Source: an uncultured Parcubacteria group bacterium (GTDB lineage: Bacteria; Patescibacteriota; Patescibacteriia; UBA9934; CAMTUG01). From it: a stretch of DNA of 64,000 nt. The position numbers and the translations under genes are program-made. Positions 6,919 through 34,046 of the stretch are shown piece after piece; the stretch's first letter is position 1, and the number at the start of each line of letters is the position of its first letter. The DNA is taken from NCBI GenBank assembly GCA_947084965.1, contig CAMTUG010000004.1, positions 23,490-87,489 of the forward strand, in the 5' to 3' direction. The notes beneath the pieces are model-generated. The model was not told where the DNA came from, searched no databases, and saw only the letters and a list, made by a program, of their open reading frames with translations.

Positions 6919-7085
6919 GCTTGCTCCCAGCGAAGATTTCGCTAGAGGGTCGGCTATCCCAGCCGTAGGGTTCGCTCCGAGGGAGACGACAAAGTAAGAT
7001 AACAACAGCGAAGCGTTTTGTCCAGCGTTTTACTGGATTCTTTTGAAGAAATGCTGGATAATGTGAGTAATTTTATCTTAGCAAC

Positions 7086-7862
7086 ATGAAACTCGGGGAA
7101 AAAACACAAATTACCCTTTTGATCGTCGGCTTCGTGGCATTTTTAGCTGTTGTCGTGTGTTTGTTGGCAAATGGCACCCAGCTTTCAGAGGGATTCAGAG
7201 AATCATTGATCGTTGAGTTGATCGGGGCGGGATTTGTGACTCTCTTCGTTTCTCTTGCGATGGCCTTGATCCAGCACCTTTTTGCGGCGAATGTAGAGAA
7301 GATTAGAGCAAAAAGAGAATCTCTAGCATGGATAGAAGAGATCATGGAGCCAGAATTCAAATCCGAATTTGAAAAGGGTGCCACGCCTTGGAACATGCAC
7401 GAGCGAGAGGATGCGGCGTTTTATTTTCACGACTCGCCCATTAACCGCATATACGACCTCATAATGCGACACCATGAAAACATCGTGAAGTGTGCGGGTC
7501 CAAGTGACTCCATGTTTTTGGCGCGTCTTTTGGAGATCAAACGGATTGTTGAAGCAGGTCGTAGTGTTGGCAGTAAAATTGATCTCGATTTGCGAAACAG
7601 AGTACGTTCGTTTAACAAAAATAGAAATGCAAATTCCGCAAATGACGGGTCGTTGTTTGTATACGCAAGAGCAAAGATTTTTTCCAATCTGACCGAAGCG
7701 AAGATTTTGGAGTATGTCGAATATGGCAATGACCAAATCCGCACGGAGTTTATGAAGACGCTGGACGATAACACGACCAACACCTGGCGTGAGAAAATTG
7801 GAATCTACACCGCCTCTCTCAAAGGCGCGCTATACAAAATGGGTTACCGAGCTGACAAGTAA
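7086..7862 (+). CDS. hypothetical two-TM membrane protein with a cytoplasmic domain
   Basis: Two N-terminal TM helices; AT-rich; first gene of the AT-rich island. Confidence 0.5.
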   Translation: MKLGEKTQITLLIVGFVAFLAVVVCLLANGTQLSEGFRESLIVELIGAGFVTLFVSLAMALIQHLFAANVEKIRAKRESLAWIEEIMEPEFKSEFEKGATPWNMHEREDAAFYFHDSPINRIYDLIMRHHENIVKCAGPSDSMFLARLLEIKRIVEAGRSVGSKIDLDLRNRVRSFNKNRNANSANDGSLFVYARAKIFSNLTEAKILEYVEYGNDQIRTEFMKTLDDNTTNTWREKIGIYTASLKGALYKMGYRADK

Positions 7863-7877
7863 ATTAATGTTGATTTT

Positions 7878-8747
7878 TTATTGTCTCTCAATATTTTTTC
7901 TTTCGTGTTCATCGATAGCAAGATAGATCGCGTCAACCGTAATAATTTTCGCCAATCCTAGATGCCCTTCGATCTTTGCCAAATCACCCTGACTCAACCC
8001 AGCGTTCTCGTCCTTTTCTCTATGCAAAAATTTAGTAACGATTCCAAGTAAGTAAGCCTTCTTGATGGGTTTTGTGCCTTCGATATGCATGAACTGTGGT
8101 TTGCAAAAAACTGGTCCACCGCTATTGCCTGGAAAAACTGGAGCATCCAAGTAAATGATGTTTTGTTTTAGGGATTCTGAATCAAGACGAGCTATCAGGC
8201 CACCTCGGCAAATAGCATAATTCTTTACTTCACCACGTAGTCCTAACGGGAACCCCAGGAAGAATACTTCATCACCCGAACAGAGGCCGACCTCTTCGTA
8301 ATCTTGGGAGCGAAGCGCCGTTTCAGTATCAATAATTTCGACGAAATCTATTCCGTTGTCACGCAATACCCTCGTCTGTATCGGGATAACAGCAACATCG
8401 ATTTCATTCGAAGGAAAACTGAAGTTTGCACCATTAGCCCCCGTGTAGAGAGGCAATTGAAAACTTTGAGTCGTTTCTTCCCCGAGCCGATCAAAACGTA
8501 AGAAAATCTCTTTTTTCTGGGAGGATTGATCGATGCCATTTTTGTAAATGACATGTTTTGCGGTCACAAGGTAGGATTTCACCTCAAATCTTGTATCGTC
8601 GATTTTTTCGATGACCTTACTGAAAAGAAAGCCTGTCCCAATCGGCTGAAGTACGCCAAAGGCATCGGGGTAGTCAATTGAAACCACGCACTTTAGGTAT
8701 CCAGGAGGAAGTAGCGCCATATAATAGACAACCCCAACATTTTGCAA
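7878..8747 (-). CDS. trypsin-like (chymotrypsin-fold) serine peptidase
   Basis: Catalytic triad context TAKHV (His), DVAVIP (Asp), GNSGGPVF (Ser). Confidence 0.7.
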   Translation of the reverse strand: MQNVGVVYYMALLPPGYLKCVVSIDYPDAFGVLQPIGTGFLFSKVIEKIDDTRFEVKSYLVTAKHVIYKNGIDQSSQKKEIFLRFDRLGEETTQSFQLPLYTGANGANFSFPSNEIDVAVIPIQTRVLRDNGIDFVEIIDTETALRSQDYEEVGLCSGDEVFFLGFPLGLRGEVKNYAICRGGLIARLDSESLKQNIIYLDAPVFPGNSGGPVFCKPQFMHIEGTKPIKKAYLLGIVTKFLHREKDENAGLSQGDLAKIEGHLGLAKIITVDAIYLAIDEHERKNIERQ

Positions 8748-8774
8748 TAAAATTCAACAATAATCAACACTTGT

Positions 8775-10037
8775 ATGCGTTTTCCAACAGAAGCCTCCCT
8801 CAGCGATTTGAGTCTCGATAAATTTGGGCATCGAGAACTGGCCAAAAACCTTGTAGCAAATGTTTTTTTGGAGATGGAGCTTCCGAACACCTTTGGCATA
8901 TACGGAAATTGGGGAACGGGAAAATCAACCTTCTTGCAGGCAGTCCAAGGGGAACTTACAAACAATGCAGATGCAAGAGACATACTTGCTATCAGATTTG
9001 ATCCGTGGAAATACGAGTACGCTGATCATATTGATCTGTTTACAGCTTTGATAAGTGATTTCAGAGAGCAGGCTAAAATTCCAAAAACAAATGAGGTTTG
9101 GAATGATCTCACAAGCGCAATGCTTGGCATATCAACTTCTATCTTCAAAAAACTGCTCCATAAAGCAAGTGCAGGGATGCTTGATGTGGATGACATGCGC
9201 GCCGAGGCTAATCTGGCCGCTACGGCATTTCCCGAGGATCAATTTGAACAAGCCGATCTGGTTCAACAACTGCGTGGAAAGCTCAACAATCTCATACAGG
9301 TTGCTCTTACGGAGAACACGAAAAAGCGCGTTTGCATCTTCATCGATGATCTTGACCGATGCTCCCCAGAGCATACAGTTACACTTTTGGAAGCGATAAA
9401 AAACTTTCTACTTACCAGCAACGTACTATTCGTTTTTGCACTGGACCGTCGCATCGTTTCTGAGATGATCGAGAAAAAATATGGTCTGCACTCTGGCTAT
9501 GGGGACGAATATCTAACAAAAATTATTCAGTACTCGCTCACACTTCCCGCGCCAACTCATGAAGGTATTTTGAGCGATATCCTTGCTGATCACCTCATTG
9601 AAATGCCGAAGGACACACAGGGTTGGATTATCAGATTTACCAATAGATTCGCGAATGAAACACGAAAATTCAAACAATTGGTTTACCAGTTAATTACGCA
9701 AGCAAAATTGGGAGGCATTGATCTTTCAAAAGACGCTCCGCTTGATACTACAAGTCTATTCTGTGCTATTTATTTGAAGTCTCGTTTTCCAAAACTTTTT
9801 CATGTCAGTCGAAAAGCGGCTCTTGAAAACATTAAAACCTATGGTTCTATGATTTCGGCTGAAACTGATAATAAGCCAGAAAAAGCTCGTGACTTCGCAA
9901 GTCAGTTGGGCATATCGGGGGAAGAGAGAAAAATATTGACTGAATTGTTTATTTTCCAAATGCCAAACAACAAAGGGCTCATGAACGAGAATCGTCATAA
10001 GCTCGAGGAAGCAGGTTTTTCGAGAATGATCGATTAG
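8775..10037 (+). CDS. KAP-family P-loop NTPase
   Basis: KAP-type Walker A GIYGNWGTGKST (GxWGxGKS) and Walker B FIDDLDRC. Confidence 0.75.
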   Translation: MRFPTEASLSDLSLDKFGHRELAKNLVANVFLEMELPNTFGIYGNWGTGKSTFLQAVQGELTNNADARDILAIRFDPWKYEYADHIDLFTALISDFREQAKIPKTNEVWNDLTSAMLGISTSIFKKLLHKASAGMLDVDDMRAEANLAATAFPEDQFEQADLVQQLRGKLNNLIQVALTENTKKRVCIFIDDLDRCSPEHTVTLLEAIKNFLLTSNVLFVFALDRRIVSEMIEKKYGLHSGYGDEYLTKIIQYSLTLPAPTHEGILSDILADHLIEMPKDTQGWIIRFTNRFANETRKFKQLVYQLITQAKLGGIDLSKDAPLDTTSLFCAIYLKSRFPKLFHVSRKAALENIKTYGSMISAETDNKPEKARDFASQLGISGEERKILTELFIFQMPNNKGLMNENRHKLEEAGFSRMID

Positions 10038-10237
10038 TCCTCAGGGCAAATCTTCGCACACCTGTCCGTCGGTGCAGTATTTGAGCTTTGGGAGCTCGTA
10101 TCAGCCTCAGTTACTGCCTCCTGTGGCGCGCCAGAATCTCCTGTGACATGGTCGCAGGCTCCATTCGCCCATAACCCTCGCTTTGCGCTTTCGGCGTCAA
10201 ATTGGGACGTTTCTTAGTCCTGGGGATGTACATAGCA

Positions 10238-10489
10238 CTATGTCTTCATCGCACTGTAAATTGCGTCGCGTAGTTTCTCTTTATCACCGAGCTTTACAGG
10301 GATCTTATGTTTCTCGCCTCCGCTCGTTTCGATAACAACCTGGGCGTGGAGTGGAACGCCAAGTTCGATACTGGAGATGCGATGAATTGGAATAGATTTT
10401 TCTATGAAGAAAACCTTGTAGGAAACATGGGTGGAAAAAACCGTTGTCTTCGTCCCAAGGTAATTCGTTTCAAATAGCGCTTCAGCCAT
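10238..10489 (-). CDS. hypothetical protein (83 aa)
   Basis: ORF only, AT-rich. Confidence 0.3.
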   Translation of the reverse strand: MAEALFETNYLGTKTTVFSTHVSYKVFFIEKSIPIHRISSIELGVPLHAQVVIETSGGEKHKIPVKLGDKEKLRDAIYSAMKT

Positions 10490-10813
10490 ATGTGTTGTTG
10501 TGGTTTTGAATTAGGGCTGGATTTTGAGCAACGCAAAAGGTCGCCCGAGCCAGCGACGATTCTCTTTCGAAAACCGCCTCACGTCCTTTCGGAGCGTGAA
10601 CCACAACAACGAGGGCTGGTCAGACGACCAACAACGTTGTTGTGGATTTATTAGAGCCATGCCCATCATTATCTGATGGGTTTAGGCAATTGTGCTTGTA
10701 TTTTAACGTAAGGCACTGAAAAAGCAAACGCTATAGGCTGAATAAAGCCAAAAAATCTAGCATAAATTGCTTAATAGTGGCAGAATCAATAGGAAAAAGA
10801 ATGAAGAATAAGT

Positions 10814-11491
10814 ATGAAGGATGAGGACTTAGATTTGTCGGCAAAAGCAATAGAGCTTAATCGGCAGCAGTTTGTAGGCACCATTTGTCATTTCGAGGGT
10901 GAAAAAATCGCCCAGTGGCTTCGTGTTAAAAAGTTGGGGATCCCGCAAGAAGGTTTTGTTGATCAACACGCTGAAAACCGTTGGTTGAATCCAGTAGACC
11001 AGAATGTAGAAGAGGTAATGAGGAGACATCATCTTGTTGGGCGCGCTATCAAGGTATTGTTGGGTATTTTCAAACTCACAGATAATTACAGTGGAGCCGT
11101 ACGACATTTCCTACTCCAAAACAAAGTCGGACATATTCCAGGGAATTTTTCCATCGAGTACACGCCCGATAACGGTAAGATTAAAACCGAGTATCATGAC
11201 CTGCCAAAGACAGGAGAGAAGACGCTTGAAAACAAATTACGAGTTGAGGTTTTCAAACATCTGAAACCGAAGACTGTCGCTCGAAGAACAAGAAAAACTG
11301 CAGAGCGGGATAGCCGTGTTACCAGCCTCACGAAGACAAAAAAGAAAGGAACGCAGGTGGAAAGGGATTTTGGCATTGTGGCGGAACTGTATCCCGTGGG
11401 AACAGTGGACGATTTTTCAAAAAAAGCTGATACGAAGCGTGTACAGTTGATAAAAAAAGCCCGTGAAAGAGATAAAAAACGTTACAGTTAA
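10814..11491 (+). CDS. hypothetical protein with a Lys-rich C-terminus
   Basis: ORF followed by an intrinsic terminator. Confidence 0.4.
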   Translation: MKDEDLDLSAKAIELNRQQFVGTICHFEGEKIAQWLRVKKLGIPQEGFVDQHAENRWLNPVDQNVEEVMRRHHLVGRAIKVLLGIFKLTDNYSGAVRHFLLQNKVGHIPGNFSIEYTPDNGKIKTEYHDLPKTGEKTLENKLRVEVFKHLKPKTVARRTRKTAERDSRVTSLTKTKKKGTQVERDFGIVAELYPVGTVDDFSKKADTKRVQLIKKARERDKKRYS

Positions 11492-11525
11492 TTTTCAAAA
11501 TTAGTGTCACCATTCAAGGAGCGCA

Positions 11526-11552
11526 AAGGGGTACCGTCGAGGTACCTTTTAT
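11526..11552 (+). terminator. rho-independent terminator
   Basis: GGTACCgtcgaGGTACC hairpin followed by TTTT. Confidence 0.55.
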
Positions 11553-11929
11553 GTTTGCGCCCGACGCCTCACAACAAACCTCCGAAGATCAGGTCGTCGA
11601 AGCATTCGCTGAGATGTTGTATATGGCTGCGCGTCAGGAGGTAAAAAATAAGTATGAACACAATCCACAATCAGTTTCCGACAAGTAATTTCTACCTTGC
11701 CGCCTATCTGCTTTCGCACGAGATCAATATGATCAACTGCGAACGTGAACATGGCGGAAAGGTTACTTTTGTTTTTTCAGATTCTGAAAATCTACGCAAC
11801 CGCGTGACTGAATTTACATTCGAACGAAATGCGCTCGTGAGTGCATCCTCCTTTGTGAATTCGATCAAGAAGTTGAAATCCCTTTTGTACGACGGGATTT
11901 GATGACAATCAAAGTATAAGAATAACCAT

Positions 11930-12538
11930 ATGGCGGAACGCCGAATGATACGCAAAGATCTTTGTGAGAATGATGCTTTCAATGATCTCACGATGCCCGC
12001 ACAAATTCTCTACATGATGCTGATTCTCCACGGCGATGATGAGGGTTGTTTCAGGGCGGATGCAAAGTACTGGAGTAGAACCGTTTTTTACACAAAGCGC
12101 CAGGGTCCATTTCGTGTAGAGCGAATGCTTGATGAACTGCGAGAAGCGAGACTAATCATCACGGGCGAAACAAAAAATGGTCCCGCTGGCTTCATTCTTG
12201 GGTGGTTTAACATGCAAACTCTCACCGCAAGCAAGAGTAAACCTAGCCAATTTTATGAACTTTTGGTTGCCCATGGAATAACTCCATGTTGGGGAATTCC
12301 TGCAGAAGAGAATGTAAGGAAAGAAAAGCAAAGTGAAGTGAATGAAGGTGGGGTGAGGTCGAATTCGCCAAGTCGTTTTCGAGAAGTTGCAGGTAAACAC
12401 AGGGACGAAAAAATCGCTAGATTACAGGCGGAAAAGAAAGCTGTAATGGAGGGAATGTCTATGGGGGCTATTTCAACTCCTAATGATTTCGATGAAATTA
12501 GCGAATATGCCGAAAATGACGTGCGAGAAGATACCTAA
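11930..12538 (+). CDS. hypothetical protein (202 aa), mobile-element-associated
   Basis: ORF with an AGGAGG-like RBS. Confidence 0.4.
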   Translation: MAERRMIRKDLCENDAFNDLTMPAQILYMMLILHGDDEGCFRADAKYWSRTVFYTKRQGPFRVERMLDELREARLIITGETKNGPAGFILGWFNMQTLTASKSKPSQFYELLVAHGITPCWGIPAEENVRKEKQSEVNEGGVRSNSPSRFREVAGKHRDEKIARLQAEKKAVMEGMSMGAISTPNDFDEISEYAENDVREDT

Positions 12539-13001
12539 GGTTAGCACGCGGTACTTCCGACCGCGCATGAGAGGATCGATTCTCACGGATCAACGCCTTG
12601 CTTCTTTTACTCTAACATCAACGCCCTGCTATTTCGGAGGGCAACGGTATTGGTTCATTTGTACGGCGGATAAAGATGGAGAACCGTGTGGAAAGAGGGC
12701 TGGCGTCTTGTACTTAATAAACGACATATTCGCTTGCCGCCGATGCCACGATTTGGCATACGAGAGCCAGCAAAGGAATCACGTCGGCAGAAGAGCATTT
12801 TGTCGTAAGTATCGAGAAGGAGAAAAAAACATGGAACGATCTTTTATGGAGATGCGAATAAAACAATGGCGAGGGAACCCAACGAAGCGCTATCAGAAAT
12901 GGCTCATGCTCAGCGAGCGGCGCACACGCGATGCATCACGATTTCTGCTTGCAGAAATGTTAGTCATCGGATTCATTAAAAGTCGTCGTAAATCTCGCTG
13001 A
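12483..13001 (+). CDS. hypothetical Cys-rich (zinc-finger-like) protein
   Basis: CxxC motifs (CTADKDGEPCGKR...CRRCHD); start uncertain. Confidence 0.35.
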   Translation: MISMKLANMPKMTCEKIPKVSTRYFRPRMRGSILTDQRLASFTLTSTPCYFGGQRYWFICTADKDGEPCGKRAGVLYLINDIFACRRCHDLAYESQQRNHVGRRAFCRKYREGEKNMERSFMEMRIKQWRGNPTKRYQKWLMLSERRTRDASRFLLAEMLVIGFIKSRRKSR

Positions 13002-13052
13002 AGTATGCAGGAACTTTTCATTTCTCCAGTTGCACGACATAATTCAAATGAT

Positions 13053-14645
13053 ATGGACAAAAAAGCACTTCTCTATCTTCGCGTTTCAACGGACAAACAG
13101 GCCGAAAAAGGTTTCAGCCTGCCAGCTCAAGAAGAGGCGTGTCGTACCTACGCAAAAACGCATGGTTTTTCTGTTGAACATGTTTACCGTGATGAGGGAG
13201 AATCTGCGCGCTCCGACGATCGGCCTCAACTGCAAGAGATGCTCGCTCGTTGCGACGAAGGTGACATTGCCGCGGTTATCGTCTACAAGCTCGATCGCTT
13301 TGCGCGCAACGTTTTCGATCACGTGCGGAATGCCGCTCGCATACGCATGAAGAAGGCCGAACTCCATTCTGTTACAGAAAATATAAGCGGTACACCCGAA
13401 GGAATGATGGTAGAAGCCATCCTTGCTAGCGTAGCGCAATTTTTTAGCGGTAACCTTGCCCGTGATGTACTCAAGGGCATGAACGAGCGAGCCAAACAGG
13501 GCATGTGCAACTCCAAGGCTCCGCCTGGCTACAAAAACATGCGGGAGATCATTAACGAAGATGTTGAGAGAAAATTCGTGATTCCTGACTCCAAAACTAA
13601 GGATTATGTGATTCAGGCGTTTGAAAAGTTCGCGACGGGCGGTTATACGGTGGCCGATCTTTGCGATTGGTTCTTTTCCGTTGGAATGGAGCAAAAAAAG
13701 AACAAAGGCAAGCCTCTCGCTATTTCAATGGTGAGTCGAATGTTGAGCAACAAATTCTACATCGGCATCACGCAATGGAATGGCATTGAGGCGGAAGGAG
13801 TACACGAGCCCATTATTTCCAAAGAACTATTCCAGCGTGTCCAACTTGTACTCAGCGACCGTATCCACGGAAGAAGCAGGAAGCGTAAAAACCTTTTCTT
13901 ATTACGCGGGCTCATGCAATGCGGCGAGTGCGGTGCAAACATCACTTATGAAAAGCAACTCACTTCATCGAAGCGGTTGATACCGTATTACCGTTGTTCA
14001 AAAAGGCAAGATAACCGAAAAGTCGATTGCACCCAATCATACGTAGACGCTAATTTTTTGGAGAAAGAAATTGCAAAAGCCGTAGAAGCCGCTCGTCTCC
14101 CCCGACACATTATTGTAAAAATCGAAAAGAAGCTCGCAGAGATTCACGAGCGGGAACAGGAGTCGGTTACTAGGGAGCGTAAGCAGATTCAAGCAAAAAT
14201 GAATCAGCTCAACGAAAAGGAACGTTCGCTGGTGAACAAGTATCTCGAAAATAAGCTGACCGAGGAAATCTACGAAACGATCCGAGAAGAAATCTCTTCA
14301 GAACGCATAAACTGCAAGGCAAGGCTCGAAGCAAACGAAAGCACGATCCAGGCGGCGATCCGCATCCTGGAACAAGCGGTTACCTTCACGCGCGACCTCC
14401 CAGTCGCCTATAAGCGCGCGCCAGACCCAATCAAGCGACGATTCCTGGCCATTCTCTTCAAAGAGATTGTGGTGAAGGATGGTGGCTTGTATAAGGTTGT
14501 ATTGAATGAGCCGCTCGACTATCTCTGCAAAGAGTTTGCCCAAAATAAAAACCTCCCCGTCAAATTCGACGGAGAAGCTTTTGGTGACCCCAAGGAGAAT
14601 CGAACTCCTATTTGGTGGATGAGAACCACCTGTCCTAACCGTTAG
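13053..14645 (+). CDS. large serine recombinase (integrase)
   Basis: Resolvase N-domain LYLRVSTDKQ with catalytic Ser, recombinase domain, zinc ribbon CGECG; 3' end overlaps the tRNA-Glu. Confidence 0.85.
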   Translation: MDKKALLYLRVSTDKQAEKGFSLPAQEEACRTYAKTHGFSVEHVYRDEGESARSDDRPQLQEMLARCDEGDIAAVIVYKLDRFARNVFDHVRNAARIRMKKAELHSVTENISGTPEGMMVEAILASVAQFFSGNLARDVLKGMNERAKQGMCNSKAPPGYKNMREIINEDVERKFVIPDSKTKDYVIQAFEKFATGGYTVADLCDWFFSVGMEQKKNKGKPLAISMVSRMLSNKFYIGITQWNGIEAEGVHEPIISKELFQRVQLVLSDRIHGRSRKRKNLFLLRGLMQCGECGANITYEKQLTSSKRLIPYYRCSKRQDNRKVDCTQSYVDANFLEKEIAKAVEAARLPRHIIVKIEKKLAEIHEREQESVTRERKQIQAKMNQLNEKERSLVNKYLENKLTEEIYETIREEISSERINCKARLEANESTIQAAIRILEQAVTFTRDLPVAYKRAPDPIKRRFLAILFKEIVVKDGGLYKVVLNEPLDYLCKEFAQNKNLPVKFDGEAFGDPKENRTPIWWMRTTCPNR

Positions 14646-14656
14646 ACGATGGGGCC
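14582..14656 (-). tRNA. tRNA-Glu (anticodon CUC)
   Basis: Cloverleaf folded by hand: acceptor GGCCCCA/TGGGGTC, anticodon loop TTCTCAT, T-loop TTCGATT, encoded CCA. Confidence 0.7.
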
Positions 14657-14747
14657 AAATGGTTTTCGCGACCGCTTTGGCGTCGCAACGGTAACATTTC
14701 AAAAGGGCCGAGTCAATAGATTTCGCGCTGTGGATGAGGCGAAACGG

Positions 14748-14776
14748 TTGACAAAGCCTTCCAAAAGCCCTATCTT
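14748..14776 (+). promoter_or_regulatory. sigma70-like promoter (TTGACA-N17-TATCTT)
   Basis: Near-consensus -35 and -10 elements upstream of the 14811 CDS. Confidence 0.4.
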
Positions 14777-14810
14777 TTCCTCTCCCCTTCCGGGAGAAAA
14801 GAGAGGCCCC

Positions 14811-15500
14811 ATGTTCGCACTGATCATTTCGGCAGCCATGGCCACGGACCCCACGGAGCAGGTGCTCGACGAAGCGCCGCCGCCCGTGACCGAAGCGCCT
14901 GCGCCGCCGGTTCGACCGGTGCCGAGCGGGCTGTACGCCACCTTCCAGGGCGGGGTGATCGGCGGGCTCAACCACCCGCTCGTCGACACCTACACCGTGA
15001 CCGACCTCTTCACCGGCGAGCAGCGCGAGGTGACCGACATCCTGCGCGGGATCTTCCACGACGGCTTCAAGGTCAACATCGGACTTGTGAACCTGCGGGC
15101 GAACGGTGTCCGCTACGGCGCGCGTCTCGCCTTCTCCCTCCTCTCCGAGGGTGGGAGCTTCGGCAACTTCGACGTCATCGCCGCTGGGCTCGACCTGCGG
15201 CCGGAGATCCTCCTGACTCCGTTCCCGGGCAAGCCCCGGCTCGCGCTGATCGTGAGTCCCGTCTCCTGGCACGGGACCGGCACCTTCGCGAGCGCGGTTC
15301 GCTACCCTGGGCTCGGCGCCGAGTACGCGATCTCGGTCCTGCCGGATCAGCTCCCGCCGCTCACCGAAGTACACATCGGGGCCTTCGTGGCACTCGAGAA
15401 CGTCACCGCCACGACCGATAGCTCCGGACCGACGGTGAACCCCGGCTGGGTGGTGCAGACCTCCCTCACGATCGGCACAGCGGTGCACATGCCGGACTGA
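14811..15500 (+). CDS. hypothetical secreted/envelope protein (high GC)
   Basis: Internal Met with a GAGAGG RBS; about 66% GC. Confidence 0.4.
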   Translation: MFALIISAAMATDPTEQVLDEAPPPVTEAPAPPVRPVPSGLYATFQGGVIGGLNHPLVDTYTVTDLFTGEQREVTDILRGIFHDGFKVNIGLVNLRANGVRYGARLAFSLLSEGGSFGNFDVIAAGLDLRPEILLTPFPGKPRLALIVSPVSWHGTGTFASAVRYPGLGAEYAISVLPDQLPPLTEVHIGAFVALENVTATTDSSGPTVNPGWVVQTSLTIGTAVHMPD

Positions 15501-15624
15501 ACCACGGTTCAACACTCTTCACTTCTCGCTCCCCGCTGGATCACTTCCAGCGGGGTTCGACGTTTAAAACGACGCGACCACGAGGGAGTGTCCCTCGCGG
15601 TCGAACGTGGAATTCAGGGACGGG

Positions 15625-16020
15625 TCAGGAACGGAGACGAGCGATCTCTGCGCGAAGCGCTGCCTCGATCTCCGGCATCCCGATGGGCTTGTTCAGCCCG
15701 ATCACCCCCAGCTTGAGGAGCTCGCCTGGATGCAGCTCAGGAAAGGCGTGGACGTCCTGCCCATGAACGAGCAGGAAGGCGATCCTGCGCCTGACCAGCT
15801 CGTCGCGAAGTCGCGCGTGAATCTGCAGGCCAGATTCGCCCGGCAGCGTCTGGTCGCAGATGATCCCGACGATGTCCTCACCGAGGCACCGATCGAGGTC
15901 GGCTCCGGAGGAACCCGTCACGACCTCGTAGTTCCACATCGTGAAGATCTCGCGGTAGAGCGAGAGGATGAGCGGCTCATCCTCGATGATGCAGATCCGG
16001 CCCAATGTGTGCGTGGTCAT
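15625..16020 (-). CDS. standalone response-regulator receiver (CheY-like) domain protein
   Basis: Motifs ICIIEDEP...IICD...NKP; high GC; AAGGGGGAAGG RBS. Confidence 0.6.
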   Translation of the reverse strand: MTTHTLGRICIIEDEPLILSLYREIFTMWNYEVVTGSSGADLDRCLGEDIVGIICDQTLPGESGLQIHARLRDELVRRRIAFLLVHGQDVHAFPELHPGELLKLGVIGLNKPIGMPEIEAALRAEIARLRS

Positions 16021-16093: not shown

Positions 16094-17068
16094 CTATGGT
16101 ATTTCCTCAAGGATCGGCTGACTCAAAACACTTTTAAAATCATAAGTTGTGAACGTCCAAACTCCATCGAGAACCTCGACCCCAACCGCGAGACCGCGCT
16201 GCGTCTCCTCTGAAAAGTATTGGTCGAAAATGAAATTCCCCAATGAGTAAAAAATCTGCACGCCGTTATAGATCTCAGACTCCTGCACCACGTGCGGATG
16301 ATGGCCGATGATCAGATCCGCGCCGGCATCAACCAACCGATGAGCCAGTTCCTGCTGAGTCAGATTGCTCCGCGTCTGATACTCCTCACCCCAGTGCACG
16401 TTGACGATAATCGGATCGTCCGATTCGGTTTCAAGCTGAGCGATCGTTTCAACCGCGGCATCAGCATCACTAAATGGGAACGTAACGTTGAACGAAGCGA
16501 AGATCATCGGGATTCCAGGAGCATCCGTTTTCAACACATGATCGAGGCCCATCTCGACCGCATGTCCTGAATGAAGAATCCCAACTTCGTCGAGAACGTG
16601 CAGCGTGTAGACATATGCCGCATGACCCTGGTCGAGGGTGTGATTGTTGGCGAGCGTCACTGCATCGAATCCGTGACGGGCCAAAAGCGGGCCGATCGTG
16701 TCAGAGAAGTTAAAACTCACGGAGTGATCCGGCGTCTGGGTGTGATCCTCAACGATCGGGCCTTCCAAATTTGCGTGAACGAAGTCATAGGCATCGATCA
16801 GTGACTGAATCTTTTCAAACGGATAGTCCTCCCCGTTCACCCGCATCAACGTCTCGACGTTCCGCCCAAGCATCATGTCACCGAAAAACAAAAGACGGAC
16901 CGGAACCGAAGGTGGTTCAGGTACGTCAGCCGCGAGCTGAAGTTGCGGTGTATCGATAATCATCGGCGCCGGTGCTGCGGTGCTCCGTGGCCAAAATGCA
17001 AAGACAGCCGCCGAAAGAGCGATGAACGCGGAAATACCGACGAGAACAATGAACGGTCGATGGGTCAT
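16094..17068 (-). CDS. CapA-family metallophosphoesterase (poly-gamma-glutamate synthesis-like)
   Basis: N-terminal TM; motifs GDMMLGR...LANNH...GHHPH. Confidence 0.6.
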   Translation of the reverse strand: MTHRPFIVLVGISAFIALSAAVFAFWPRSTAAPAPMIIDTPQLQLAADVPEPPSVPVRLLFFGDMMLGRNVETLMRVNGEDYPFEKIQSLIDAYDFVHANLEGPIVEDHTQTPDHSVSFNFSDTIGPLLARHGFDAVTLANNHTLDQGHAAYVYTLHVLDEVGILHSGHAVEMGLDHVLKTDAPGIPMIFASFNVTFPFSDADAAVETIAQLETESDDPIIVNVHWGEEYQTRSNLTQQELAHRLVDAGADLIIGHHPHVVQESEIYNGVQIFYSLGNFIFDQYFSEETQRGLAVGVEVLDGVWTFTTYDFKSVLSQPILEEIP

Positions 17069-17143
17069 AATGAAAAATTATAGCCCGTTGCGGCCCAAAA
17101 TGCGAACGCGCCCTGGGAGTGACCCAAGGCGCGGGCGGGCGGA

Positions 17144-18604
17144 TTATTCGCCCGTGTCGTAGGCCGCCGTGTCGACGGAAGCCGTATCGATCGATCCCGT
17201 GTCGGTGGCAGTGTCCACCGTGTTCCAGTCCTCGAGGCGATCGAGAAGACGGTCGAACTCCTGCGCCACCTGCTCGACGCGCGGCTCGTAGAAGTCGATG
17301 ACGTCATCACACCTTGCATCGTCGCCGTCGCGCATCCATCCGTTCCCAACAAGCTTCAGACAGATCTCCGATGCGATCTCAGCCGGGTTGACCTCGGCGA
17401 TCGTGGCGAGGGTGTCGACGCCGGTCAGGAGTTCCTCCTCGCGGCAGGCGTGGTCGCGCTTGCACATCGAGGTCATCACCGACATGCCGTCGTAGCGAAC
17501 GCCCGTGTACCAGGGATGGTCCGCGGTGATGTCCACGCTGTAGAGGTACTGCGGGCCGAAGGCGACCGCGTTCGAGGACTGCACCACCACGCAGTTGTTG
17601 GTGTTCCGCTCACAGTCATCGCCCGCCCCGAGGAAGTAGGAGATGAACTTGTAGTCCCAGTAGGAACGCACGTCCCAGACCTCGCTGGCGCTCTCGAGCC
17701 AGCCGTCCCCAGAAGGAACAGCGTAGAGATCGGCGACCGACTGGGCGAAGGCGGTGTTGTCGCAGTCCTCACCGTCGATCGTCCACTGGCAGTCGACCTC
17801 GGAGAGGTTCTCGACCGTGTACTCGTTGATCCCTCCGACGTACTCCCAGGCCTGCACCGCTTCCGGGACTTCGCGCTCGAAGAACCCGGTCTTGTAGCGC
17901 TCGACCAGCGTGTAGACGGCCCAGACGCCGGAGTCGATCTCCGCATCCCAGAACGAGGTCTGGACGAGGACGTGGGTGGACTTGGGCGCCGGGAATCCGG
18001 AGGCACGGGCGATCGAGAGCGCGGTGTGCTCCCGCTGGATCCCGGACTCGGCCCCGCCGCCGTTCAGGCGGACTTTGGTGTAGCCACCCGGCAGGATCTG
18101 CCCTGCGACCTCTTCGTCGATGTTCATGGCGATGTTCGGGATCCCGAACGTCCCATCGTCGCGGGTGAAGTAGTCAAAGGAGGACTCCCCCGAGAGCCAG
18201 GCCTCGACGTTGACGAGCTTGACGCAGTCCTCGGTATCGAGGTTGATCACCCAGACCGCATCGAGCGTCGGCGCTCCGCTCTCCGCGCTCTCGAGATCGT
18301 AGACGTACCAGTCGTAGTCCATGTCCGAGGTCTCGTCGAGTTCTTCGGCCGTCTCCGCGTCGAAGTCAAGGTAGAAGGCGATGTTCGCGGCGTTGTCGAA
18401 GACGTCGTCCATCTCCGAGGCCGCCATCTCGTTGCAGACCGGCTCGTTCGAGCCGTCGGCACCGGGGACAACTTCGACCCCGGTGGTGTCCTCGCCGTCG
18501 TCGACCCCGGTGGTGTCCTCGAGGTAGTAGGTGTTGTAGACGTTCGTCACGTCGGGGACGCACCCCGCGAGAACGAGGGGGAGAAGGACAGGGCGGCAGT
18601 TCAT
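17144..18604 (-). CDS. hypothetical acidic lipoprotein (high GC)
   Basis: Lipobox LVLAGC; GGAG RBS; about 62% GC. Confidence 0.45.
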   Translation of the reverse strand: MNCRPVLLPLVLAGCVPDVTNVYNTYYLEDTTGVDDGEDTTGVEVVPGADGSNEPVCNEMAASEMDDVFDNAANIAFYLDFDAETAEELDETSDMDYDWYVYDLESAESGAPTLDAVWVINLDTEDCVKLVNVEAWLSGESSFDYFTRDDGTFGIPNIAMNIDEEVAGQILPGGYTKVRLNGGGAESGIQREHTALSIARASGFPAPKSTHVLVQTSFWDAEIDSGVWAVYTLVERYKTGFFEREVPEAVQAWEYVGGINEYTVENLSEVDCQWTIDGEDCDNTAFAQSVADLYAVPSGDGWLESASEVWDVRSYWDYKFISYFLGAGDDCERNTNNCVVVQSSNAVAFGPQYLYSVDITADHPWYTGVRYDGMSVMTSMCKRDHACREEELLTGVDTLATIAEVNPAEIASEICLKLVGNGWMRDGDDARCDDVIDFYEPRVEQVAQEFDRLLDRLEDWNTVDTATDTGSIDTASVDTAAYDTGE

Positions 18605-27150: not shown

Positions 27151-27225
27151 TGGTCGGGCCGACCGGGATTGAACCGGCGACCTCTTGGACCCCATCCAAG
27201 CGCGCTCCCACTGCGCCACGGCCCG
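27151..27225 (-). tRNA. tRNA-Pro (anticodon GGG)
   Basis: Hand-folded cloverleaf: acceptor CGGGCCG/CGGCCCG, anticodon loop ATGGGGT, T-loop TTCAATC, CCA encoded. Confidence 0.7.
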
Positions 27226-27436: not shown

Positions 27437-27512
<76 letters not shown>

Positions 27513-31837: not shown

Positions 31838-32161
31838 ATGGACTTGCTTCAAAAGAAATGTGCGGCTTGTGAGGGCGGGACCCCGCCGCTCACAGCAGAC
31901 CAGATCGCCACGTTCAAGGCAGAATTAAAAACCCCTTGGGACGTCGTAGACGAAAAACATCTTCGACGATCGTTCACCTTTGCGGATTTCAAGGAGGCGA
32001 TGGAGTTTGTAAACAAGGTCGCCGAGGTCGCTGAGTCGGAAGGTCACCACCCAGATATCAGCATTCACTGGAACAAGGTCGACATTGATCTGTGGACCCA
32101 TGCGATCGGCGGACTCTCAGAAAACGACTTTATCCTCGCGGCAAAAATCGAGGTTCTGTAA
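31838..32161 (+). CDS. 4a-hydroxytetrahydrobiopterin dehydratase (PCD/DCoH)
   Basis: Motif EGHHPDI; start taken at the internal Met. Confidence 0.7.
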   Translation: MDLLQKKCAACEGGTPPLTADQIATFKAELKTPWDVVDEKHLRRSFTFADFKEAMEFVNKVAEVAESEGHHPDISIHWNKVDIDLWTHAIGGLSENDFILAAKIEVL

Positions 32162-32175
32162 TCCAAAAACAACAA

Positions 32176-32210
32176 GAGACTCGGCCCTTGATCGCCGGGC
32201 CTCTTTTTGT
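32176..32210 (+). terminator. rho-independent terminator
   Basis: GGCCC...GGGCC stem followed by CTCTTTTTGTT. Confidence 0.45.
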
Positions 32211-32246
32211 TAAGGTCCGGTCGGACCATCAACCCCGGAGAGTCCC

Positions 32247-34046
32247 ATGACCCGCACCGTCCCGACCCGCACCGTCCCGACCCGTCCCGATCCCCACTCG
32301 TACCGTGACAACACCCAGCCGACCATGAAGCACATCGAAGTCGAGATCGAACCTGACTTCGACCAGCGCATCATCTACGGCGTCGTCGAGATCGTCTTCG
32401 ATCGCGGCGGTACCGTTGACCTCGACACCCGTGACCTGACGATCACGCGCGTCGTCAACGCCGACTTCCAGTCGCTCCCCTTCGAGCTCGCCGAGCCGGA
32501 CCCGCTGCTCGGCACCCGACTGACCTTCGTCGTTCCGGACGACGAGCCGGTGGTCATCATCGAGTACAAGACCGCCCCGACCGCCAGCGGCCTGCAGTGG
32601 CTCACCCCGGAACAGACCGCGGGCAAGCGGCACCCCTTCCTCTACAGCCAGGGGGAGTGCATCCACACCCGGAGCTACATCCCTTGCCAGGACACCCCCG
32701 GCGTGCGGGTCACGTTCCAGGGCAGGATCATCGTGCCGTCGGAACTGCGAGGACTGATGGCCGCAACCTTCGTCGAGCGCCGCAAGGATGGTGACGGAGT
32801 CTCCGACACCTGGAAGATGACGAAGCCGATCCCGCCCTACCTGATCGCCTTCGCTGTCGGCGACGTCGTCTCACACGCCCTCACGCCTCGCATCCGCGTC
32901 TGGGCCGAACGCCCGGTGATCGAAGCCGCGGCGCGCGAGTTCGAGGCCCTGTCGACGATCATGGACAAGGCCGAGGAGCTCTTCGGTCCCTACCCCTGGG
33001 ACCGCTACGACCTCCTCATCATGCCCCCCTCCTTCCCGTTCGGCGGGATGGAGAACCAGGGGCTGACCTTCCTCAGCCCGTCGGTTCTCGCCGGAGATGG
33101 CTCGATGCTCTCCGTGGTCGCCCACGAGCTGGCCCACTCCTGGACCGGCAACCTGGTGACCAACGCGACCTGGGACCACTTCTGGCTGAACGAGGGCTGG
33201 ACGACCTGGGCCGAGGGACGGATCGGCGAGCTCGCCTTCGGCGTCTCGGTCGCGGACCTCAACCGCGCGATCATGGGTACCGACCTCCGGCGCGACATCG
33301 AGCGGTTCATGAAGACCGGCCGACCGGATCTCACTCGCCTCGCCTGGAACCTCGGTGGCACTGACCCGGACGACGCCTTCAGCCGCGTCCCCTACAGCAA
33401 GGGCGCCCAGTTCCTGACGGCGCTCGAGACCCACGTCGGCCGCGACGCCTTCGATGCGTTCACCATGCACTACATCCAGGAATTCGCCTTCCAGAGCATC
33501 ACGACCGAGGAGTTCCTCCACTTCCTCGAAGCACACCTGCCGGGCGCGTTCGCGGCGATCGATGGCGATACCTGGATCCACGGCACCGGAATGCCGAGCA
33601 CCGCCGTGCCGATCTCCTCCCCGCTCATCGACGAGGTCACGCAGTTCGCCGTCCAGGGGCAGCTCCCGTCGCTCGCGCAGGCCGCGGACTGGCACGCGCT
33701 GCAGTGGGCGATCTACCTCGAGCGCCTTCCGCGGACGATCATGCACGATCGCATCCACGACCTCCAGCGCCTCCTGCACCTCGAGGAGCACGGCAACATG
33801 GACATCCGCTTCAACCTGGCGCTCCTGTACGCCGAGGCAGGCTACTACGACGGACTCCAGTTCGTCGAGTCGGTCCTCGCGGGCACCGGTCGCACCCGCT
33901 ACCTCCTCCCGATCTACAAGGCGCTGGCGCAGAAGGGCGGCGTCTTCGGAGAGTTCGCCCGCCGCGTCTTCGCCGAGCAGAGCGCGAGCTACCACGCGAT
34001 CGCTCAGAAGGGGGTCGAACGGACCTTCGTCGAAGCAGCCACGTAG
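32247..34046 (+). CDS. M1-family zinc aminopeptidase (LTA4 hydrolase-like)
   Basis: HELAHSWTGN...NEGWTTW (HExxH-x18-E), GGMEN motif; about 66% GC; the 5' end carries a 15-nt tandem duplication. Confidence 0.8.
   Translation: MTRTVPTRTVPTRPDPHSYRDNTQPTMKHIEVEIEPDFDQRIIYGVVEIVFDRGGTVDLDTRDLTITRVVNADFQSLPFELAEPDPLLGTRLTFVVPDDEPVVIIEYKTAPTASGLQWLTPEQTAGKRHPFLYSQGECIHTRSYIPCQDTPGVRVTFQGRIIVPSELRGLMAATFVERRKDGDGVSDTWKMTKPIPPYLIAFAVGDVVSHALTPRIRVWAERPVIEAAAREFEALSTIMDKAEELFGPYPWDRYDLLIMPPSFPFGGMENQGLTFLSPSVLAGDGSMLSVVAHELAHSWTGNLVTNATWDHFWLNEGWTTWAEGRIGELAFGVSVADLNRAIMGTDLRRDIERFMKTGRPDLTRLAWNLGGTDPDDAFSRVPYSKGAQFLTALETHVGRDAFDAFTMHYIQEFAFQSITTEEFLHFLEAHLPGAFAAIDGDTWIHGTGMPSTAVPISSPLIDEVTQFAVQGQLPSLAQAADWHALQWAIYLERLPRTIMHDRIHDLQRLLHLEEHGNMDIRFNLALLYAEAGYYDGLQFVESVLAGTGRTRYLLPIYKALAQKGGVFGEFARRVFAEQSASYHAIAQKGVERTFVEAAT

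Follow-up and report, generated by a model that had tools for sequence, protein, structure and literature searches.

A trypsin-like protease and a KAP NTPase in the variable cargo slot of a tRNA-Glu-integrated element from Parcubacteria: two candidate single-gene defences

Introduction

Single-gene KAP NTPases protect Enterococcus faecalis from phage by a non-abortive route that needs both Walker B and the C-terminal region, and the validated set comprises EF_KAP and three metagenomic KAPs (PMC13552941). EF_KAP itself has two transmembrane (TM) helices and a 322-aa C-terminal region, lies on a mobile element with a small serine recombinase nearby, and belongs to a family whose members are often membrane-associated (PMC13552941). 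In the trypsin-metallo-β-lactamase (MBL) modules of Hachiman, AVAST and Argonaute, the effector is activated by a trypsin-like domain (bioRxiv 10.1101/2025.09.03.673762). The PDC families are a set of 145 single- or multi-gene candidates drawn from genes embedded in BREX, DISARM and type I restriction-modification (R-M) loci, an approach termed guilt-by-embedding (bioRxiv 10.1101/2024.01.29.577857). Here we analyse a stretch of 64,000 nucleotides from an uncultured Parcubacteria group bacterium (contig CAMTUG010000004.1, positions 23,490 to 87,489; hereafter the window), in which an integrative element of about 7.6 kb (about 7010–14590) carries a membrane protein, g1, next to a trypsin-fold serine protease and a KAP-family P-loop NTPase. 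The original prediction had read these three genes as one candidate defence module. Our analysis instead indicates that the protease and the KAP are probably two autonomous single-gene defences, a latent protease and an NTP-driven switch, and that g1 probably serves the element.

Results

Both enzymes appear to be members of candidate single-gene families that have already been catalogued. In a comparison with the PADLOC hidden Markov models (HMMs), to which the PADLOC calling thresholds were not applied, residues 35–247 of the protease matched positions 37–244 of the 293-position PDC-S45 profile (PDLC05022; 71.6 bits, E-value 1.3e-20), and residues 15–311 of the KAP matched positions 19–308 of the 464-position PDC-S20 profile (PDLC04959; 134 bits, E-value 2.1e-39). 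The protease resembles PDC-S45 in its length of about 280 aa, its cytoplasmic nature and its lack of a conserved partner, whereas its back-to-back arrangement with a KAP gene lies outside the PDC-S45 definition. PDC-S20, the best PADLOC match of the KAP, is likewise similar in size (~420–460 aa), single-gene, mobile and found near defence genes, although the C-terminal ~110 residues of the KAP extend beyond the profile match. The original prediction had recognised no named system at this locus, which is right for the trio as a whole but not for its two enzymes, each of which matches a PADLOC candidate family. Nothing on a protease family of the window type or on KAP was found in DefensePredictor or in the trypsin-MBL paper.

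The longest ORF of the protease starts at a TTG codon (7878–8747, minus strand; 289 aa), and the true start is the ATG at 8720, because all homologues begin with MALLPP and an identical public protein is 280 aa long. Homology searches with the window proteins recovered the public proteins P0001 and P0121 at 100% identity, and exact-sequence look-ups of the 289-aa ORF and of the window KAP returned no record, the public call of the protease being the 280-aa P0121. The predicted His/Asp/GNSGGP triad proved sound, with a Trypsin_2 (PF13365) score of 38.4 bits against a cut-off of 27.6 (E-value 2.5e-9) and with His56 (TAKHV), Asp108 (IDVAV) and Ser200 (GNSGGP), encoded at 8553–8555, 8397–8399 and 8121–8123, standing in the canonical order in columns that were invariant across 25 homologues. 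A search of PHROG profiles returned phrog_7688 (3.7e-25), weak PADLOC matches were obtained to LmuA (1e-5) and RT-Protease_XI (1.1e-5), and a profile search of solved structures led to the protease domains of HtrA, DegP and DegS. The protease differs from HtrA/DegP in that it has no hydrophobic N-terminus and no PDZ match, and its TIGR02037 score was 17 bits against a cut-off of 416. Neither a TM segment nor a signal peptide was predicted. The N-terminus of the family is strikingly conserved (M-A-L-L/I-P-P-x-x-L) and lacks a pro-peptide, features that could bear on the latency of the protease. Its Trypsin_2 fold, intact triad and adjoining P-loop NTPase are reminiscent of protease-effector modules such as trypsin-MBL, Lamassu with its LmuA protease, and the type XI reverse transcriptase (RT)-protease systems; unlike those, the window protease is free-standing, neither fused to nor co-transcribed with a sensor, and no MBL nuclease, LmuB/SMC ATPase or reverse transcriptase was found near it, its neighbours being g1 and the KAP.

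The KAP scored 125.5 bits against a cut-off of 20 for KAP_NTPase (PF07693; E-value 3.2e-36, residues 29–264), in agreement with the P-loop claimed in the original prediction. Walker A (GNWGTGKS) lies at residues 44–51 and Walker B (FIDDLDRC) at 189–196, and W46, G47, G49, K50 and D191–C196 were invariant among 43 homologues; the codons of Lys50 and of Asp191/Asp192 occupy 8922–8924 and 9345–9350. TM helices inserted in the NTPase domain are frequent, albeit not universal, in the KAP family. In the window KAP, no 19-residue stretch reached a Kyte-Doolittle (KD) hydropathy of 1.6 (maximum 1.47), and the insert at residues 121–154, which is the TM site in many KAPs, was modelled by AlphaFold2 (AF2) as low-confidence amphipathic helices that are not hydrophobic. 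Because hydrophobic helices and signal peptides are absent from both, the protease and the KAP are each assigned to the cytoplasm. The AF2 model of the KAP (pLDDT 83) comprises the NTPase core and an all-helical C-terminal domain of about 150 aa; its best solved-fold matches were the RdrA rings of RADAR, followed by ORC/Cdc6 and STAND ATPases (TM-scores 0.4–0.5), and a search of PDB sequences with the KAP profile gave generic P-loop matches only.

With EF_KAP-type defences the window KAP shares the P-loop, the Walker B DD that EF_KAP needs and carriage on a mobile element near a serine recombinase, which is here of the large type, but it is 420 aa long, has no TM helix and ends in a helical region of ~150 aa, so that the similarity is limited to the NTPase domain. 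Weaker PADLOC matches concerned PifA (5.7e-30) and QatA (7.5e-23). The PifA match covered residues 5–261 against positions 7–257 of a 720-position profile, that is, the NTPase domain only, and full-length agreement was not found. The domain also resembles QatA (NCBIfam NF041923), although its 94 bits compare with a cut-off of 600, and no match to QatB, QatC or QatD was obtained among the six island proteins scanned (g1, the protease, o225, o202, o172 and the recombinase).

The distribution of the two genes argues for their autonomy. Our survey drew KAP loci from species-representative genomes, protease loci from metagenomes and both from IMG/VR, with the contigs of the closest homologues added, and profile searches of six-frame ORFs yielded strong matches at 88 protease and 102 KAP loci. 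Both genes occurred together only in the window and in one further locus, L001, so that the neighbourhood conservation expected of a module was largely missing. Clustering of the neighbours over 82 protease loci revealed no conserved partner, no family being present in more than four loci. In these neighbourhoods, the protease and the KAP are distributed independently, each alone in many contexts rich in defence genes. One additional two-gene candidate, L029, was rejected as a housekeeping HtrA-PDZ protease near a leucine-rich repeat KAP, and an AAA_16 protein beside a protease relative in L232, considered as a cryptic KAP, showed no similarity to the family.

A 60%-identical protease in Candidatus Uhrbacteria (L002, 10001–13125; also L003 and L004) is accompanied by a LexA/S24-fused cytosine methyltransferase and a Bsp6I-type endonuclease, and other KAP-free relatives at 50–60% identity adjoin either DUF2779 and PDC-S19 followed by an OLD/GajA-like gene, or AAA_16 and an AbiJ-like gene. 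In L002, the type II R-M genes and the protease are inserted between secY and adk, where a ribosomal-protein operon ends, an unusual site for a defence islet. Solitary 420-aa KAPs were found beside a tyrosine integrase, overlapping a Shedu gene, between an Mrr fragment and Abi_C, and between housekeeping genes; in a gammaproteobacterial metagenome-assembled genome (L010, 5989–7395), a KAP of this subfamily has a uvrB-like gene on one side and a uvrA-like gene on the other, each separated from it by a few base pairs. The defence interpretation of the original prediction is thus borne out insofar as both enzymes match PADLOC candidates and have relatives adjoining R-M, Shedu, Abi_C/AbiJ-like, PDC-S19 and OLD/GajA-like genes, but not as a three-gene system, and a role in defence is our best guess for the protease and for the KAP.

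It is quite unlikely that this cargo has a function other than anti-phage activity, such as addiction or competition against rival mobile elements, protein turnover, or host-cell interaction in episymbiosis, with the PADLOC matches reflecting similarity at the domain level only. Such a function would be consistent with the status of the PDC families as candidates, with the lack of phage data for Patescibacteria, and with the secreted appearance of an SNase-Excalibur nuclease that occupies the same slot in a related element and need not be defensive. Moreover, tblastn of the protease against cultured phages gave no match, and that of the KAP against the phage collection gave only five weak ones. 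These points are countered by the repeated placement of relatives of both enzymes beside bona fide defence genes, by the occurrence of both families on viral or prophage contigs and in PHROGs, and by the validation of distant single-gene KAPs as defences (PMC13552941).

Several observations nevertheless weigh against the autonomy of the two genes. PDC-S45 and PDC-S20 are only candidate families, and the KAPs that have been tested are longer, membrane-anchored and distantly related. Some absences in the survey are uninformative, since many metagenome contigs are short and only 48 of 80 protease loci had at least 1.5 kb on one side. In the 420-aa KAP, neither Pfam nor the AF2 model revealed a recognisable effector domain, which makes a partner in trans attractive. 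The protease-KAP block recurs intact in the unrelated context of L001, a 3.9 kb contig that retains the divergent layout and a comparable spacer (60 bp, against 54 bp in the window), a pattern to be expected of a genuine two-gene unit.

In such a two-gene system, the KAP would sense infection and, through NTP hydrolysis or oligomerisation, activate the protease as effector, and the other divergent neighbours of related KAPs would be swapped effectors, as in Lamassu, AVAST and CBASS. The 2.2 kb block (7896–10052) is the sole part common to L001, whose flanks are unrelated, and its spacer has been kept although the proteins are only 64% (KAP) and 77% (protease) identical. Among effectors, proteases and membrane proteins are classic, trypsin-like effectors or activators are known from Lamassu LmuA, RT-protease and trypsin-MBL systems (bioRxiv 10.1101/2025.09.03.673762), and the neighbours of the KAP in two other loci would fit a swap: in L228/229 the divergent upstream gene encodes a DUF2254-like multi-TM protein, and in L234 it is an ORF beginning MSEKHHWVPQSYLRAF. 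Roughly 50 nt before the KAP ATG align among the window, L001, L234 and L228 even though the upstream gene differs. On the other hand, beyond L001 the protease was present in none of ~100 other KAP loci and a KAP in none of ~85 other protease loci, KAPs of the 420-aa subfamily were solitary among housekeeping genes or by an integrase with no candidate effector, and the closest KAP (80% identity, L234) has a different neighbour. The two genes are also divergent rather than co-transcribed, and the protease family is without any conserved partner. We consequently regard a true two-gene system as rather unlikely. It is unlikely, too, that the effector-less KAP is a sensor whose divergent neighbour is an exchangeable effector (the protease in the window and L001, the DUF2254-like protein in L228/229 and the ORF of L234 as a third kind), with the pair as an undescribed two-gene defence of Patescibacteria in a hotspot bounded by g1 and a LOOT RNA.

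The third gene, g1, has hydrophobic helices at residues ~5–34 and 39–70 (maximum KD over 19 residues, 3.1) and no family match in Pfam, PADLOC, NCBIfam or PHROG; its AF2 model was poor (pLDDT 58), and a fold search was dropped for this reason. The family is rare: a search of 1.8 billion proteins gave 30 representatives at E < 1e-3, and g1 was not found in IMG/VR. Its homologues (63–78% identity) occupy the same terminus of elements with a large serine recombinase (LSR) in L166, L167–169 and L170–172, with different cargo alongside. Because it is kept at this terminus in sister elements despite the change of cargo, g1 is a backbone gene, conserved at one end of these elements, and no specific partner of the protease or the KAP.

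A defence module in which the two-TM protein, the protease and the KAP act together is accordingly highly improbable. The three genes are adjacent and share a low GC content, and a membrane partner is conceivable given that KAPs are often membrane-associated (PMC13552941), but g1 is conserved beside completely different cargo in three other element variants and is missing from L001, which has the protease-KAP block. With the pair recurring in one other locus of ~190 and close KAPs having other neighbours, the module as originally proposed does not stand. The features that had been attributed to the genes are present (a two-TM protein, a trypsin-fold protease and a KAP NTPase, according to ORFs, TM prediction and Pfam), and their adjacency is real, but the implied co-direction was wrong: the order is + − +, and the trio does not form an operon. 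The stop codons of g1 and the protease converge with a separation of 15 bp, and the protease and the KAP diverge from a short spacer (Table 1).

The sequence between g1 and the LOOT RNA block differs in every element variant. In L166 (g1 70% and recombinase 81% identical to those of the window), it holds the SNase-Excalibur nuclease (PADLOC "SNc+LTD", 1.2e-45) plus small genes; in L167–169 (g1 65%, recombinase 61%), a PDC-M36A-like gene (1.8e-42, L167); in L170–172 (g1 63%, with DUF5659 in common), unannotated genes (L170); and in the window, the protease and the KAP. These four contents show that the region bounded by g1 and the LOOT RNA turns over as a hypervariable cargo hotspot. A trace of this turnover follows the KAP stop codon, where the Excalibur C-terminus (DGQVCEDLP and stop) is readable from 10042 on the minus strand and an internal fragment at 10070–10234 is 69% identical over 55 aa to the L166 SNase (tblastn). 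L234 and L228/229 (KAP 64%), both short contigs, share this junction of KAP and SNase and retain an intact SNase 3' end. This shared junction records a history of cargo replacement, in which the protease and the KAP would have displaced most of an earlier SNase-Excalibur gene. Elsewhere in the slot, a 279-aa protein of L170 (9898–10737, minus strand) and the L166 SNase (7985–9037, minus strand) have only their N-terminal ~75 residues in common (32% identity), which suggests that slot genes may join a common N-terminal module to different C-terminal domains.

Defence hotspots of the P2/P4 type, carried by small integrative elements and satellites, are a general concept. The present element resembles them in having a conserved backbone around one slot of variable content enriched in defence-like genes, and differs from them in its Patescibacteria host, its LSR at tRNA-Glu and the bounding of the slot by g1 and the LOOT RNA. 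The LOOT RNA (Rfam RF03000) heads the block of leftward genes, beside the divergent control region before o225, and recurs at the equivalent position in L166 (9871–10000), L167 (10851–10968), L170 (11071–11200) and L171 (6501–6630), these four sister copies scoring 60–74 bits. Two of its hairpins are of the CGAAAG (GAAA-tetraloop) type, and compensatory changes among four element variants affected 17 of the 37 predicted pairs. The LOOT RNA is hence a conserved part of the backbone that forms the right edge of the variable slot.

The element reads, from left to right, g1 (+), the cargo, a block of small genes with the LOOT RNA at its head (all −), and then o225, DUF5659, o202, o172 and the recombinase (all +). 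The names attached to homologues suggest a Patescibacteria host. Its GC content of 44.8% (43.4% over 7878–10813) against 54% in each flank agrees with the AT-rich island of the original prediction. DNA similarity to L166, L167 and L170 begins at ~7010–7020, about 70 bp upstream of g1 and around the motif TTTACTGGATTCTTTTGAAGAAATG, where GC falls from 59.7% to 43%. At the opposite end, the recombinase matched three LSR domains (PF00239, 1.5e-33; PF07508, 2.2e-13; PF13408, 3.1e-13), and its ORF overlaps tRNA-Glu by 64 nt, the final ~21 residues being encoded antisense to the tRNA; the predicted LSR overlapping tRNA-Glu was thereby recovered, together with an end motif common to the sister elements. 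Similarity to these sisters ends at this motif, TCGACGGAGAAGCTTTTGGTGACCCC. It spans the tRNA-Glu 3' end (from 14582) and is likely the attachment-site core at the junction of element and tRNA, the recombinase crossover possibly falling within the candidate stretch TTTTGGTGACCCC. Because TCGACGGAGAAGCTTTTGGTGACCCC is also found in sister elements that have no intact tRNA there, the attachment site may include the tRNA 3' end. No long direct repeats flanking the element were found, as expected for a serine recombinase. The LSR probably inserted the element into the 3' end of tRNA-Glu, and the description of the genes as accessory cargo of a tRNA-integrated element with a serine recombinase is supported. 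In L166 (12350–15976), a second LSR gene starts 2 kb downstream of the first, with an Aminoglyc_resit-domain gene between them, an arrangement that suggests tandem elements at one site.

Table 1. Features of the integrative element and its target, in window coordinates.
Feature	Position	Strand	Evidence
Left terminus (approximate) and region upstream of g1	7010–7085		Sister DNA similarity, GC drop
g1, 258 aa, two N-terminal TM helices and a helical soluble domain	7086–7862	+	ORF, TM prediction
Cytoplasmic trypsin/chymotrypsin-fold serine protease, 280 aa, PDC-S45-like	7878–8720	−	Trypsin_2, PDC-S45, phrog_7688
Divergent spacer; candidate KAP promoter TAGACA-17-TAAAAT at 8725–8753	8721–8774		Consensus scan
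Short TM-less KAP-family P-loop NTPase, 420 aa, PDC-S20-like	8775–10037	+	KAP_NTPase, PDC-S20
SNase-Excalibur pseudogene remnants: 3' end just past KAP stop, then internal fragment	10040–10234	−	tblastn
Backbone ORF, 83 aa, no Pfam match	10238–10489	−	63% identity to 84-aa gene of L166; also matches L170
LOOT RNA (RF03000), heading the leftward side	10555–10688	−	65.4 bits against gathering score of 46.4
o225, backbone gene, no family match (Pfam, PADLOC, NCBIfam, PHROG)	10814–11491	+	38% identity to same-position gene of L167–169
DUF5659 backbone gene	11654–11902	+	PF18903, 1.5e-11; DUF5659 at same position in L166, L167, L170
o202, replication-initiator-like; N-terminus resembles DnaD-type helicase loaders/replication initiators	11930–12538	+	phrog_8489, phrog_5708, phrog_1408; 62% identity to L166 gene
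o172, backbone gene	12483–13001	+	45% identity to L166 gene
Large serine recombinase (integrase)	13005–14645	+	Resolvase, Recombinase, Zn_ribbon_recom; phrog_95 integrase, 2.5e-98
Conserved right-end motif TCGACGGAGAAGCTTTTGGTGACCCC	14566–14591		Identical or near-identical in L166, L167
tRNA-Glu(CUC), integration target	14582–14656	−	ARAGORN; Rfam tRNA, 58.6 bits

Outside the element, the ORF adjoining tRNA-Glu (14649–15500) had no Pfam match. GC content rises to 63–67% at 15001–16000, 17001–18000 and 32001–34000 amid surroundings of ~54%, and two divergent tRNA-Pro genes (27151–27225, minus strand, and 27437–27512, plus strand; anticodons GGG and CGG) are separated by a gap of 211 bp.

Discussion

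If the protease and the KAP are indeed autonomous, each gene would act alone as an anti-phage or anti-mobile-element defence, to the benefit of element and host alike. On sensing an infection cue, the KAP, as a switch driven by NTP, would oligomerise, possibly into rings like those of RdrA or STAND proteins, and the activity of both Walker A and Walker B would be required, as for the distantly related KAPs that defend as single genes. For the protease, we envisage a latent endopeptidase in the cytoplasm that would cut a phage or host target upon infection, and g1 would serve the element itself, for example in membrane exclusion or maintenance, rather than its present cargo.

For the three-gene claim, the main value of this analysis is one of correction, since an unnamed three-gene system does not hold. 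To our knowledge, there is almost no experimental knowledge of mobile elements and immunity in Patescibacteria, and the comparisons presented here define in this group a family of small elements that encode a serine recombinase and have a single, hypervariable slot for cargo. The orphan LOOT RNA thereby gains a concrete genomic home, in which hypotheses on its role, such as a lysogeny-like switch or the control of cargo expression, become testable. Whether minimal KAP NTPases depend on a trans-acting partner could be tested at little experimental cost with the protease-KAP block that recurs here. The flanks formed by g1 and the LOOT RNA provide a practical handle for harvesting cargo genes, and if the neighbours of the KAP were exchangeable effectors, these same boundaries could serve the mining of new immune genes across the candidate phyla radiation.

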